Source: Barthelona sp. PCE
Lineage: Eukaryota
Assembly: GCA_040285745.1 (NCBI GenBank)
Contig: JAUFOR010000008.1
Coordinates: 62,001 to 126,000 of the forward strand
Direction: 5' to 3'
DNA length: 64,000 nucleotides
The notes beneath the pieces are model-generated. The model searched no databases. It was not told the origin of the DNA and saw only the letters and a list, made by a program, of their open reading frames with translations. The first letter of the stretch is position 1; each line of letters starts with the position of its first letter. A program made the position numbers and the translations under genes. Of this stretch, positions 23,788 to 30,467 are shown one piece after another.

Positions 23788-24050
23788 TTGAGAATAAATA
23801 AGCATTGTTTGACATTTTTCAATTTTCTTCCTTTTCTTATTCTAATCAAGCCCAAATGTGTATAATTAATAGGGCTACTGTGTTAATTTTGCTATACGTA
23901 ATGTTTTCATGTTCATTCGCTGCACTACCCTTCTATTCAGCAAGTTCTGTTCATCGTAATGCCTGTGGTTTTGGTGCTATCCTTGATCTGAACGGTGGAT
24001 CCGGTGATATCCAGCCAATCAGTAAGCTAATGGTTAATCTTACTTGTCAT

Positions 24051-24167
24051 TAGACTTTGCACAAACAGAATTTAAATGTCGGTCGAAGATAACTCGCGAT
24101 TAGCGAGTTGTCCAATCTTTACTAATAATAGTAAATATAAAGATGTTTACAAGTGAATGAGAAAACT
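24051..24167 (+). repeat. Left terminal inverted repeat (117 bp)
   Basis: tagactttgcacaaacag...gtgaatgagaaaact is the exact reverse complement of 28041-28157. Confidence 0.95.
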
Positions 24168-24227
24168 TCTATCAAAATTCTAAAGGGAGTTTCGCTTTTA
24201 TTACCCGTATTAGTCTTCTACAATTAC

Positions 24228-27200
24228 ATGATTGGTCTCAAACATAGTCAGGTGTGCATACAGAGGGAATCGATAGTTGAGGTTGAAAGAAAACCTAGAG
24301 ATTATAAAAACTCTTTGTATTTCACTATCCAGTACAGAACAAGAGATGGAACAGATGCAACTGAGCGTTTCATCATCAGCGACTGCTGTTTTGCAAGCAG
24401 GAAAAGCTTCACTTCCGAAAAATTTGGAGTTTTTGCACATTCATCCTCATGTGAGTTATTCAACTCCCATGCTAAGGGCAAAAGTCGGGTTAAGATGGAA
24501 ATAGGCAAATCACTGACCAAGAATCAAGCCCATATGGTTGGACTTTTCATTTTCACGGGAAAACCCTTCACTGATCATTTACCATTAGATGTTCAGGGAA
24601 AAATATTAGCCACTGCTCTTAATCACAAGTTGATACAAGAGTCATTCATTTCTAAGCAAGAAATTCGAGAGAAACTGAACATAAATGGATTTGATTACTC
24701 CACTATAAGAAAATGTTTAAAAGGCTTGCAAACAAAAGCCGGTGATAGAGATTTTATCACCAGCAAACAGTTTAGTGGAATGATGAACGAACAATTGTTT
24801 GAGTGGAACGATGATCATAGATACTGGGAATGTATAGATCCTAATGTCTTTCGTAATTCACTTTATCCAGGATATTTTGGAATTGACCATAGAAATATTC
24901 GAAATATAAGGGTGCATTTTCCAATGAATATCGATAACAGTGATATATTTGCTTACCATGGTCTTCGTTTGAAAGATAAAAGTTTGAATAGTATTAGCAA
25001 TCGATATGGTCGGAAATGGGCTTCATCTTTCACGCTTTTTCTGAGACACAACGCGTCTATGGTACATTCATTCGTTTTGAAGACATTAGTACATTCTCTT
25101 AAAAAACAAGCAGAGCTACAGGGTGGTGCCTGTTGCAGCTTTGAATATGACGTTTCCAGTGACAGTTACAGCGCTGCTCTCATTGTAATGAAGGTCCCAG
25201 AGCAATTAGTTATTGATTATATTGATGATCCTATTTATAACAGAGATACCAAAATGTTCTTTAATGACACACGCTCTACTAAAACAATGAATGACTACAT
25301 TATTAGTTTAAAAGGAAGGTTTGTGGTCTTTGACATTTTTGATGTGGAGTACAAAGATCTTAACGACCTTACAATTTACTCTGATGCATTAGATGAGGGA
25401 TACCGTAACCTCACAATGCCTTCAAGTATGAACAAGTATGGAAAACGGTCTCAAGACGTTGCATATCATATATTATCATCTTTTAAGCGAAAAGGAGTAA
25501 TTGAAGAATTTTCCATCATTGAGAAGGAATCTAGAGATGGTTGGGGTTTACACGAATGTATTGTTGACATGGGAGACTCCAACATCAAGATCGTTATTGG
25601 TACAGATAACGGTACGCCTGAACAGACAGCATGTCAGAAAATTGTTGATGCATGTACGTCAATATCACGTATGCCATGTGCCTGCCATGTGCTCAACAAG
25701 CTAATGAGCAAGACAGTTGGATTTGAAGTCTTTGAAAATGAAGGTTTATGTGATGGTGTAATAGAGGATATAAATTTGCTTAGTAGAGTAGATACTGAGA
25801 TAAATGTTGATATTTTCAATAATATTACAAGTACTGTTCCCTTCAGGAGGCTTCGCAAGAAACTTGAGTCAAGAACACTGTTCACTAACCGTTTACCAAC
25901 ACGTTCTCCTGCTGTTAGACTTTCATCAGTCGTGGATCTTGAGAAGACTAACATGAGATTCACCGGTTCTGTCAACACAATAGAGGATATTGATGATGAA
26001 ACTATTGAATCCGTTTGTATTCATGACAACTCTGATAACCCTGGGTTTAGGGATGAAGCACTTCTCTTTATCTTCGCGTACGTTTCATATTATGAGACGC
26101 AGTGCATCGAGTTTTTAGAGGGTAAAAACAAACCGAATTATTTGATGAATTTTGATATTTATCTTAACAACAAAGCGAATTTTGAGTCAAGAGGAGGAAG
26201 TCAACGTGAGCGTCCCACTGTTCAACAGGAGATACCCTTCTATGATGGGTTCACTCGTCATCTGAATTTGATGCCGTTGTATGAGTACTCCAATCTTATT
26301 AAAGAGCAGAAAAAATGTGTGCAAAAGTTCGCCAGCATTCAGTCTGTTATTGCAGTTGAGATCATGAGTGTCTTCTTTAAATACAATTCATTGTGGTGTA
26401 CGTATACAGGTAAAAGCTGTGTTCTTAAGCAAGTTCGTTGGAGCTCTTTGGAAACTATATATGAAGTGTTGTGTAGTGGACTCTATGTTGACATCCCCTT
26501 AACAGCCATGCCAGGCTTAAAAATAGCGATGAATTCAGATAATGTAGTAGTTGACATGTCGCATTTGGAAATCACTGAGGCTTTTTTAAATAGTGAATAT
26601 TTTCAAGATTTTGAGTTTAAGTTGCCGATTAAACGTATTTTTAAATCAACGAATAACCAATACGATGCCTCAACTCACTATCGACATTTTTTGTGTCCTT
26701 TCTATGAAGCCTTGAATAACGCAGACAATCAACCGCATGCGTTTTCTCTGGGAACTGATATGTGGAGCTTAAGCAAAGCTTACTTAACCGTTTTAAGACA
26801 ACTCATGCACATTCAAAAGCTTTGCAGCGATAATTCCACTTCTGCTTTACATGCTTATCATCAGATTGCAATGTTGTTGTTTTGCCTTCTTAGATATAAA
26901 TCCGAAGCTATTTATACGAAGAATTTATTGAAAATAGCATACTTTAAAGGGCTATTTGAGTACAATAGGCATTACTTGTGTAAGTTTTTTGTTATGCCGG
27001 AACCCTTGGTAGCATATCTCCTCTGCGGACATGAGCACGTGAAGATGAAAGATATTGTCTACCCCGAAGAACAAAGCAGAAAACCTCCCAAGAAGGGTAC
27101 TTTAAGTGAGGAATTGAGAGACTTGTGTCAAGACTTTAGCTATATAAGCGAGTTACTACCTAACATAAGGAAAGAGTATGTGTTTGTACGTTTAAAAGGT

Positions 27201-27893
27201 GTGATGATATATTCGTTTCTGCAAACAAAATTTAAAAAGCATTTTGTTGATGATCATTCACATGCACTTGTTGCTAATGAAATATCTGTATATAGAGAAA
27301 TAAGTAATCAGTTTATGCATCCTAAGTACTACAAAGGTTTAGTTGCTCACATTATTTCACTTCTTTGTACTAATTTTTACTCTGATTTTTCTTCCTGTAA
27401 TGAAGAACGTCAAAATTTGCAGGATGTGTTGAATGCTCAGAATAATGATAATCGTATTACACAATCCCCTTTAAGATCTCAAAATGAAGGAATTTTGGCT
27501 GAAATACTATCCCCTTACGATATCCCACCACCTTATGCAAATGAACCGCCTGTTTCAGCCGCAAGATCATCATCATATGAGTTCAATTTTGATGATCAGA
27601 GTTTGCGTGAGAGGGATATTCGCTCGGCGCTGATTTATGGTTGCCAACATGAAGATGTGGTTGGTTTGAGTGTGATTCAAGAGATTGTCAACAAGTACAA
27701 GACGGTTCCTGCAAGCAACGCATGTGTTGAGCGTGGATTTTCGGTGTTAAAGACTGCACATACATGCAAACAAAAATTGCTTACCACCCAATTGCGATTT
27801 GACTGGTTTTTATACCATGAAGTAGGTGCAGTTGCAGCACTAACAATTGAGGATATTGAGAAAGCCATGAATATAGAAAGGGAAGCTGAATAA
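24228..27893 (+). CDS. Large hAT-family DDE transposase (~1,220 aa from first ATG)
   Basis: IGTDNG (second catalytic Asp), PCACHVLN (CxxH), VRWSS, and VPASNACVERGFS (catalytic Glu, hATC domain); the ORF track starts at a GTG inside the TIR. Confidence 0.88.
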   Translation: MIGLKHSQVCIQRESIVEVERKPRDYKNSLYFTIQYRTRDGTDATERFIISDCCFASRKSFTSEKFGVFAHSSSCELFNSHAKGKSRVKMEIGKSLTKNQAHMVGLFIFTGKPFTDHLPLDVQGKILATALNHKLIQESFISKQEIREKLNINGFDYSTIRKCLKGLQTKAGDRDFITSKQFSGMMNEQLFEWNDDHRYWECIDPNVFRNSLYPGYFGIDHRNIRNIRVHFPMNIDNSDIFAYHGLRLKDKSLNSISNRYGRKWASSFTLFLRHNASMVHSFVLKTLVHSLKKQAELQGGACCSFEYDVSSDSYSAALIVMKVPEQLVIDYIDDPIYNRDTKMFFNDTRSTKTMNDYIISLKGRFVVFDIFDVEYKDLNDLTIYSDALDEGYRNLTMPSSMNKYGKRSQDVAYHILSSFKRKGVIEEFSIIEKESRDGWGLHECIVDMGDSNIKIVIGTDNGTPEQTACQKIVDACTSISRMPCACHVLNKLMSKTVGFEVFENEGLCDGVIEDINLLSRVDTEINVDIFNNITSTVPFRRLRKKLESRTLFTNRLPTRSPAVRLSSVVDLEKTNMRFTGSVNTIEDIDDETIESVCIHDNSDNPGFRDEALLFIFAYVSYYETQCIEFLEGKNKPNYLMNFDIYLNNKANFESRGGSQRERPTVQQEIPFYDGFTRHLNLMPLYEYSNLIKEQKKCVQKFASIQSVIAVEIMSVFFKYNSLWCTYTGKSCVLKQVRWSSLETIYEVLCSGLYVDIPLTAMPGLKIAMNSDNVVVDMSHLEITEAFLNSEYFQDFEFKLPIKRIFKSTNNQYDASTHYRHFLCPFYEALNNADNQPHAFSLGTDMWSLSKAYLTVLRQLMHIQKLCSDNSTSALHAYHQIAMLLFCLLRYKSEAIYTKNLLKIAYFKGLFEYNRHYLCKFFVMPEPLVAYLLCGHEHVKMKDIVYPEEQSRKPPKKGTLSEELRDLCQDFSYISELLPNIRKEYVFVRLKGVMIYSFLQTKFKKHFVDDHSHALVANEISVYREISNQFMHPKYYKGLVAHIISLLCTNFYSDFSSCNEERQNLQDVLNAQNNDNRITQSPLRSQNEGILAEILSPYDIPPPYANEPPVSAARSSSYEFNFDDQSLRERDIRSALIYGCQHEDVVGLSVIQEIVNKYKTVPASNACVERGFSVLKTAHTCKQKLLTTQLRFDWFLYHEVGAVAALTIEDIEKAMNIEREAE

Positions 27894-28040
27894 GTAGTAT
27901 GAGGAAAACTTCATTGTTTCACAGAATAAGTATGATTGTTCACCTCAATGTTGACTGTTCTTGTTCGTTATGAGGTTTATTTAATAAAAAAAAGAAGTTT
28001 GTTAAACTAATGTTGGGGAAAAATTCACAAAAAAGTTGGT

Positions 28041-28157
28041 AGTTTTCTCATTCACTTGTAAACATCTTTATATTTACTATTATTAGTAAAGATTGGACAA
28101 CTCGCTAATCGCGAGTTATCTTCGACCGACATTTAAATTCTGTTTGTGCAAAGTCTA
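28041..28157 (-). repeat. Right terminal inverted repeat (117 bp)
   Basis: Perfect reverse complement of 24051-24167. Confidence 0.95.
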
Positions 28158-30467
28158 CTTGTCATGGTTCCTCAATGTTTTCTGTCAAGTATACCGATGC
28201 TTCTTCGTCGAGGTGGGAAGTTCCTAGAATGTATGAGTCAGAAGCCGCCGAGGCAGACTCTCATATTACAATCGACATTACTGATTCTCCTTTTTGTTTT
28301 GTTGTTAAGAATGGCCATAATAGGGTTCTTGACACGTGTTACAACACTGTTGAGGATTCCCTTTTGTTCTATGATGAGCATATCCGCTTAACAACGCATC
28401 TCACCGATGAAGAAACACTGTATGGTCTTGGTCAACGTAATTTTGATCTTGCTCTTGAGAAGGGCATTGCATATCGCCTTCTTGCATCTGATGCCGATGG
28501 ATGTACCTTTAACCCACAGAGGAGTTGTTACGGTACTCATCCTATTGCTTTTGTTGCTTCCAACAGCCAGCATCGTGCTATTCTCTTCCGCAACTCAAAT
28601 GCTGCCCAAGCAAACTACACTGATGATGATCGTCTCATCTGGGAAAGCAGCGGTGGCATTTTACACTTTGATGTGTTTTTTGCTAATTCGTTCTTTGAAG
28701 TCACTGAACTTTACCGTAACAAAGTTTCAACCGGAAAGACCCCCGATGCCCTTCCATTCTGGTTGCTTGGCTGGCAGCAATCCCGATGGGGTTACAACTC
28801 GTTGGATGATGTCAAGCGTATGGTGAACACGTACAAGAAGTTGAGAATGCCACTTGACGTTGTTTACTTCGATATTGATCTGTTTGACGAGTATAAAGAC
28901 TTCACATTAGGCCCTTCATTCCCCCGTGAAGCAACCCAGGCCTTCATTGCCGATCTTCAAAGCCGTAACATCAAGATTGCAGTTATTGTCGACCCGGGAT
29001 TGGCAATCAATAATACTTATTCTCCTTACACAGAGTTGAAGGATTCAGGTCTGTACTTGAAGAAGCCTGACGGTTCCCCGTTCATTGGGTCTGTTTGGCC
29101 TGGTGATGTTCTCTTCCCTTCATTTTCAGGTGATACCAGTATTATTGATGTGTGGGCCAAGATGCTTGATGATTGGCATAAGCTTTTCGCTTATGACCTA
29201 TTGTGGACCGATATGAACGAAGTTTCAAGTCGTACTCATATGGACAAGACATGCCCTGCTGTTTACAAGCCAGGTGATCGTGATTGCCCGATGTTTATTC
29301 CCGAAAATACTCCGTCTCTCGCGCAACACACTGTGAGCATGAACGTTACTGATACCGATGGTACAACGATGTTCAATCTGCGCAACTTGTATGGTCGTGA
29401 AGAAAACCGAGTTACACGTGCTGCTCTTAACAAGATCTTACCTGATCAGCGTGTGCCAACAATTACTCGCTCTTCGTTCCCTGGAAGTGGTCGATCGACT
29501 TACGCATGGTTAGGCGACAATTTCGCAAGCGAGCTCTCGCTCAGAGCAACTATTGGTCAGCATCAGGCACATCAGCTTTTCGGAATTGACGTCACAGGTG
29601 CCGATCTTTCAGGATATCACGGCTTGTCTTCTGTTGATCTCAACTGTCGTTGGATGGAGCTTGGTACATTCCTCACTTTCTCACGCAACCATAAGGCAAA
29701 AGCCTTCCCTTTCCAGCCCCCGTATTACAACGGTCTTGTTAAGGATGTTTCTATCGCCGCAATTAACCTTAAGTATGAATTATCGCGTGTCATGTATTCA
29801 CACTTAATGTTGCGCAAGGGTCTTACTATGCAACCTCTTGTATACCACTGGGATTCTATTGCTGATTACCGTCGCGTCAGCGATCAGTTTGTTTTCTGTG
29901 ATTCCATCATGGTATGCCCTGTCGTTGTTGAGAATGCAACGACAAAGGAATGTCTACTTCCCAAGGAGGAGAGCTGGTTTGAATTCCGTACCGGTTTCGC
30001 AGTCGCTTCTGGTCGTAACACATACCCTGCTCCTCATGGATATGTTAACATGTTCTTGCGTGATGGTGCCATTATGCCCCTTCACTCTCCACGTTTGACA
30101 ATAACCGAAGCTGGTGAGACTGATGTTACACTCGTTGTTGTTCGTCCAGTCATGCGAGATAATGTTCGTTTCGAAGCCTTCTTCGATGATGGTCTTTCCC
30201 GTGATCTGAACGCTAACATCACTAGTACTTTTATTAACACTCCTAAGGGATTCTCTTATGAAGTTACGAATAAGAATTACGAACTGAACACTCACGTAGC
30301 TACTGTTCGTGTTACCAATGTGAGGGATAATACATATTTGTGTATTGGAACCAACACAATCCACCCTACTTCTAGTATCCATGGTGGATTCCTTGAATAT
30401 CAGCTTGACATGCCTCTCACAGAGGATTTCGAGGTGTTATACTGCTAATAAAATTGTTTTCTTGTAC

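Follow-up and report, generated by a model that had tools for sequence, protein, structure and literature searches.

A probable hAT-type transposon of a very divergent lineage, with 117-bp terminal inverted repeats, interrupts a glycosidase gene in Barthelona sp. PCE

The window analyzed here is a 64,000-nucleotide stretch of the genome of the metamonad Barthelona sp. PCE (GenBank assembly GCA_040285745.1, contig JAUFOR010000008.1, positions 62,001 to 126,000). At 24051-28157 it contains a 4,107-bp element with perfect terminal inverted repeats (TIRs) and one long transposase open reading frame (ORF), flanked on both sides by CTTGTCAT. With good confidence, we regard it as an autonomous cut-and-paste transposon of the hAT superfamily, broadly defined, and of a very divergent lineage with at least four families in this genome; hAT membership in this broad sense, when kinship with the long-TIR hATm elements is counted in, is held with greater confidence. 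An earlier note, made from the letters of the window, had described a hAT-type element with an 8-bp target site duplication (TSD), TAG...CTA ends, mismatch-free 117-bp TIRs, and an uninterrupted transposase ORF with TDN, CxxH, RW, and ERxFS motifs. All of these features were recovered, and the hAT-type assignment is supported by the TSD, by the motif order D-D-CxxH-RW-E, and by weak PF05699 and Hermes matches.

The two TIRs are complementary at 117 of 117 nt (100%); of the 23 inverted pairs listed between 22 and 30 kb, the second best spans 31 nt at 71%. In full, the element termini read TAGACTT...AAGTCTA; set against the hAT termini (T/C)A(A/G)NG and (T/C)AGNGNNG given in the accessible text of PMC6027215, TAG fits, and position 5 is C, not G. 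The T2/A7 pattern of the TSD is the preference described for Ac-type elements (PMC4316626). The extent of the TSD is ambiguous: TA, the last two bases of the TIR, also stands before the left TSD, so that a 10-bp TSD with asymmetric ends would remove an equal length. Given the symmetric ends, we favor the 8-bp reading. Two separate perfect 7-bp stems lie within the TIR, an arrangement that arose in 4 of 2,000 dinucleotide shuffles, and the first is a candidate transposase-binding site. No tandem subterminal repeats were found in the TIR, no second element copy or TIR fragment elsewhere in the 64-kb window, and no Rfam match in the window. A possible second TIR element at 1285-1553, seen as a 140-bp self-match, was rejected, being a direct repeat (~129 bp, 83% identity) in Ala/Ser/Lys-rich coding-like DNA.

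The transposase frame is stop-free over 24153-27893, with its first ATG at 24228, 60 bp from the inner edge of the left TIR; the same start Met is used in P0003, a copy 91% identical. Its G+C content at third codon positions (0.35, against 0.42 +/- 0.05 for 19 host ORFs) is inside the range of those ORFs. The D, D, R, W, and E residues of hAT transposases occur in order, with a CxxH inside the range of 15-45 aa after the second Asp stated in PMC5499845. D308, D460, C484, H487, R737, W738, and E1168 are all among the 94 positions that are invariant when one representative of each of the four families is compared. Since five further acidic residues are also invariant across the four representatives, the putative D308/D460/E1168 catalytic triad was assigned by motif context. 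An ordered-motif pattern, written after the transposase sequence had been seen, matches 1 of the 43 long ORFs of the window (the transposase) and 1 of 20,000 shuffles.

The motif spacings of the protein are wide: 152 aa between the first and second Asp, 278 from the second Asp to the W, 430 from the W to the Glu, and 708 from the second Asp to the Glu. The corresponding Hermes residues (D180, D248, R318, W319, and E572; PMC6027215) are spaced by 68, 71, and 253 aa, with 324 from second Asp to Glu, and those of Kat1 by 67, 199, and 319 aa, with 518 from second Asp to Glu (PMC4763223). In two canonical hAT controls, the second Asp-Glu distance is 346-347 aa. One of them, L137, has 161 aa between its first and second Asp, and the 152-aa spacing is thus not unique. 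Neither a CxxC in the first 330 aa of the eight N-termini inspected nor a Pfam BED match was found, and a BED-like motif is present in both long canonical hAT controls.

The element has interrupted a host gene for a GH31 alpha-glucosidase. Once the element and one copy of the TSD are taken out, the 65-codon 5' piece and the 3' piece read as one open GH31 frame, and the first three bases of the element, TAG, form an in-frame stop for the interrupted gene. In the 3' piece, three Pfam domains of GH31 exceed their cut-offs, and its alignment with maltase-glucoamylase begins at the TSD residues, in the middle of the N-terminal domain. The 5' piece alone gave no database match; its hydrophobic N-terminus, read by eye, is a probable signal peptide. 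The insertion is recent, and we are nearly certain of this, because neither GH31 half has decayed and both are in frame. With the TIRs still perfect, this agrees with the earlier proposal of a very recent insertion. An ATG 17 bp past the element opens the 3' part (28175-30448), in which the catalytic domain is retained in full. Speculatively, a truncated GH31 enzyme without signal peptide could be produced if the TIR drives outward transcription.

Three protein comparisons, each of them weak, favor kinship of the enzyme with hAT transposases. Residues 1125-1221 match PF05699 clusters in Atlas (score 0.93, 180 of 256 features, 23 of 30 matches), although an Atlas search with the whole protein gave no usable match. 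When the full structural model was compared with VIA-align, Hermes (8EDG) ranked first of 48,161 (Z 5.5, root-mean-square deviation 5.5, 195 residues aligned), and this alignment is the longest among the 50 matches listed. It stops at residue 1163 against Hermes 567, placing E1168 on E572. Foldseek with both models and VIA-align with the core-domain model returned nothing informative. DUF659 matches below cut-off in 3 of 11 proteins (E 0.013-0.11), spanning the second Asp and CxxH. The canonical references were seven PF05699-positive hATs recovered from genome contigs, with which ~44 columns could be aligned. The two best matches of the family profile among the motif ORFs, with E 0.0087 and 0.12, were hAT C-termini positive for PF05699. 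Viral sequences were also scanned for transposases to serve as references; the scans yielded 0, 0, and 13 loci, and on visual inspection none of these resembled a hAT. Seven of nine loci from bacterial metagenome-assembled genome records (L134-L142) encode PF05699-positive hAT pieces of eukaryote type, which are probably eukaryotic contamination of bacterial bins.

Several results weigh against the hAT assignment. The 8-bp TSD is read at one insertion site only. No Pfam family reaches its cut-off in the 11 proteins, and PF05699 is found in none of them; no hAT matched among 1.84 billion representative sequences or among PDB sequences. The Atlas score is uncalibrated for parts of proteins. Unrelated helical bundles reach the same Z of 5.5 as Hermes, and a Z below 8 may be chance; the AlphaFold models are of low confidence, with predicted local distance difference test (pLDDT) values of 44 and 45, and the Hermes match comes from the pLDDT-44 model. 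The hhalign comparison with the seven canonical hATs is weak (probability 0.6% for the whole protein, P 0.009-0.018 for the C-terminus), and these references were picked by a motif like that of the Glu region, which makes the match partly circular.

The transposase belongs to a set of proteins confined to one organism in our searches. Its relatives are 19 named proteins, all from Barthelona sp. PCE (Metamonada) and annotated as hypothetical, together with two unlabelled records that the window encodes exactly. The named relatives are dispersed over contigs of six different lengths. The proteins form four families, and 7 of 21 proteins, the window transposase counted, have at least 1,200 aa. 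Family 1 consists of the window transposase, P0003 (91%), P0002 (90%), P0005, and P0006. P0005 and P0006 are identical to the window transposase over 511 and 192 aa, which suggests a second, near-identical copy whose frame is shifted in an A-run, either genuinely or through a sequencing error. Identity to the window transposase is 35% in family 2, 39% in family 3, and 21-30%, in patches, in family 4. All of the ordered motifs are kept in 9 of 10 long proteins, P0018 lacking RW. In P0012 and P0013 an N-terminal piece is joined to the C-terminus; these look like internal-deletion derivatives, although as predicted proteins they could be false-intron models.

No relative outside Barthelona sp. 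PCE was found among the 1.84 billion representatives (7 matches). None of 78 pattern matches in metagenome contigs, and none of 54 and 46 in viral contigs, where the TIR start was also absent, were confirmed as relatives. A plasmid search gave 7 matches, the chance level, and a word search with the C-terminus returned the paralog P0002 only. We found no account of this transposase family in the full-text literature, a provisional result since Repbase, Dfam, and most subscription papers lay outside the search. The sole paper with both the name Barthelona and the string "transpos" does not describe the family in its available passages or searchable supplements. The suggestion of the earlier note that the element represents a divergent lineage in a protist is upheld, with relatives in Barthelona sp. 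PCE only and no description found. As a separate observation, the family-1 copies (P0004, P0003, P0002) appear to be mosaic: the window copy resembles P0003 in patches at ~237-254 and 760-797, and P0003 resembles P0002 over most of 509-1200. This pattern suggests recombination or conversion between copies. In family 2, P0010 and P0025, compared with P0022 and P0023, have common variant stretches directly after the putative first catalytic Asp and directly after the putative catalytic Glu, and may therefore differ in their specificity for ends or targets.

On the model of Hermes and Kat1, D308, D460, and E1168 would form an RNase H-like active site, and the transposase would cut at both TAG ends. 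Hairpins would be left on the flanking DNA, with CxxH and W738 assisting, and the ends would be joined to target DNA 8 bp apart, which would give rise to the CTTGTCAT duplication. The ~600 extra residues relative to Hermes-sized enzymes would be inserts surrounding an otherwise ordinary core. Because the two ends of the element are the same and contain palindromes, they may be recognized symmetrically, by a different N-terminal domain; in the accessible text of PMC10368747, the subterminal repeats to which Hermes BED domains bind form a palindromic pair, and this pair is confined to the left end. We put it at an even chance that the N-terminal ~300 aa, without a BED finger, bind the TIR palindromes, that the two ends are read alike, and that the cis-acting end consists entirely of the 117-bp TIR. 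Homogenization of the ends by recent conversion would explain their identity equally well. The element is slightly more likely than not to be active at present.

The strongest competitor to a divergent hAT is a separate, unnamed group of superfamily rank within the CxxH clan (hAT, MULE, P, and Kolobok), sharing hAT chemistry and as distant from the other members as these are from each other. The absence of any significant sequence or profile match to a hAT would fit such a group, as would the lack of a BED motif in 8 of 8 N-termini against its presence in 2 of 2 long canonical controls, and motif spacings about twice the Hermes values. However, the 8-bp TSD, the YAG ends, the RW, and a C-terminus placed with PF05699 by Atlas are hAT traits, and wide spacings already occur in Kat1 (518 aa from second Asp to Glu) and L137 (161 aa between the Asps). 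Metamonad proteins possibly evolve fast, and the divergence may reflect nothing more than this. We consider a separate group improbable. A bolder form, in which these are the first members of a new CxxH/DDE group of superfamily rank, confined so far to an early-branching metamonad and still moving in its compact genome, whose BED-less ~1,220-aa transposase would read identical palindromic ends with a novel N-terminal domain, is unlikely.

The length of the TIRs raises the question of kinship with hATm. Typical hAT TIRs are 5-27 bp, and the longest reported in 2014 was the 28 bp of Roamer, according to the accessible text of PMC4316626. The 117-bp TIR lies outside this short-TIR definition, which hATm shows not to be strict. 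For hATm elements, Zhang et al. 2018 (PMC6004678, in part) describe TIRs of 417 and 575 bp, with TAG at the ends and TSDs of 8-9 bp. The earlier note had taken hAT TIRs to be normally a few tens of bp at most; that 117-bp TIRs lack precedent among hATs is not supported, and we also reject "longest hAT TIR known" as a description of the element. Three of the listed hATm ends, a minority, start with TAGAC, as here (PMC6004678 Fig. S3). For reference proteins, at least 120 metagenome loci were fetched by a motif, and hATm-type loci were identified by their ends. Candidate ends were found in 16, two of which (L060 and L073) have TAGGGTG and an 8-bp TSD, and the loci listed include 14 near-full hATm-type proteins of 588-816 aa. 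Ungapped extension gave end pairs of 13-17 bp in 15 of the 16. In the remaining locus, L089, the inverted repeat extends over at least 107 bp (1-107 / 2806-2912, 95%) and is cut by the contig start.

The element could be a highly diverged hATm, and would then only add a member to a long-TIR family already known, as the TIR lengths, TSDs, and TAGAC ends of hATm and the L089 repeat would allow. Against this, hmmsearch between the family and the 14 hATm-type proteins was negative in both directions (best E 0.41 and 0.52), and the probability by hhalign was 0.14%. The hATm-type second Asp-Glu spacing is 315-356 aa, the motif contexts differ from those of the transposase here, and the TAGGGTG...CACCCTA termini of hATm are replaced by TAGACTT...AAGTCTA. 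The C-terminus fits canonical hATs better (P 0.009) than hATm-type proteins (0.18). PF05699 was found in none of six hATm-type references tested; hATm-6 is described as carrying it (PMC6004678). Nesting of the transposase in a known long-TIR family, on which the earlier note had made novelty depend, was thus not seen, in a comparison of low power in which canonical hATs barely match either. A hATm origin is very unlikely.

We give just as little credence to a Mutator-like element (MULE). A TIR above 100 bp with an 8-10-bp TSD is typical of MULEs in the accessible text of PMC5499845 and PMC6446971, and the element falls within the MULE definition of a TIR above 100 bp with an 8-11-bp TSD. C/D(2)H and the W are common to both superfamilies, and a 10-bp TSD is arithmetically possible. 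However, Atlas places the C-terminus with PF05699, Hermes is the best match by fold, a Pfam search relaxed to E 1 brought up no MULE family, and the whole Muta1 protein has 504 aa (PMC5499845) against 708 aa from second Asp to Glu here. That the element is an artefact of the assembly, or a host gene that has been domesticated and no longer moves, can be practically dismissed: the A-run frameshift of the near-identical copy means that the assembly may contain indel errors, but an exact 8-bp duplication splitting a continuous host frame is the product of transposition, and relatives are spread over several contigs.

The features of the element and its insertion site are collected in Table 1. A lipin-like protein and a small GTPase adjoin the element, and the window is very gene-dense and intron-poor: its 64 kb contain 40 ORFs that start with ATG and encode 200 aa or more.

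Table 1. Coordinates, in the window, of the element, its putative catalytic residues, and the interrupted host gene.
Feature	Position	Strand	Remarks
5' piece of host GH31 alpha-glucosidase gene	23856..24050	+	65 codons
Left TSD, CTTGTCAT	24043..24050	none	T at position 2, A at 7
Left TIR, 117 bp	24051..24167	+	starts TAG
Palindrome 1 in left TIR	24091..24109		perfect 7-bp stem, 5-nt spacer; mirror copy 28099-28117
Palindrome 2 in left TIR	24118..24135		perfect 7-bp stem, 4-nt spacer; mirror copy 28073-28090
Transposase ORF, 1,221 aa	24228..27893	+	intact; 89% of element
D308 codon, putative first catalytic Asp	25149..25151	+	invariant in representatives of four families
D460 codon, putative second catalytic Asp (GTDN)	25605..25607	+	sub-threshold DUF659 match spans stretch
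CxxH, C484-H487	25677..25688	+	24 aa beyond second Asp
R737-W738, putative equivalent of Hermes R318-W319	26436..26441	+	
E1168 codon, putative catalytic Glu	27729..27731	+	hAT C-terminal-like region
Right TIR, 117 bp	28041..28157	-	exact reverse complement of left TIR
Right TSD, CTTGTCAT	28158..28165	none	
3' piece of host GH31 gene	28166..30448	+	stop-free; whole catalytic domain

The long TIR has a precedent among hATs. More unusual are the large size of the transposase and its lack of a BED finger, the symmetric TIRs with their two palindromes, and a radiation into four families within a single host. A family that falls below every Pfam cut-off, with members annotated as hypothetical, implies that the transposon content of under-sampled protists is being overlooked. 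A BED-less hAT enzyme of about twice the usual size, acting on symmetric palindromic ends, offers a natural test of the Hermes model of BED domains and asymmetric ends. The presence of an intact copy inside a glycosidase gene that it has disrupted suggests that the element was recently mutagenic in this compact metamonad genome. Its use as a genetic tool is speculative and would depend on its being active.

Among known systems, MULEs such as Muta1 and Spectre share long near-perfect TIRs, a possible 8-bp TSD, CxxH, and the W; the element differs in its hAT-type C-terminus, far longer insertion domain, and lack of tandem subterminal TIR repeats, a separation made without direct comparison of MULE proteins (further MULE features are described in the accessible text of PMC12973397, and Buster TIR lengths in that of PMC12637253). 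Long TIRs, TAG ends including TAGAC, and an 8-9-bp TSD are common to hATm (PMC6004678), which differs in having no detectable protein similarity, other motif contexts, and the TAGGGTG end. Kat1, likened here by description only, is likewise an enlarged, barely alignable hAT (958 aa, D310/D377/E895, CxxH, W576; PMC4763223), whereas it has a BED domain, is domesticated, and is ~260 aa shorter; Roamer TIRs are 28 bp. With the Hermes/Ac group the element shares the 8-bp TSD with T2/A7, YAG ends, a single ORF, the order D-D-CxxH-RW-E, a C-terminal hAT-like region, and a weak fold match in the insertion domain. It departs from that group in its 1,221 aa, in the distances from second Asp to W (278 against 71 in Hermes) and from W to Glu (430 against 253), in the lack of a detected BED finger, and in its 117-bp TIR (5-27 bp in PMC4316626). 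Hermes ends are asymmetric and BED-bound (PMC10368747, in part), whereas those of the Barthelona element are symmetric.

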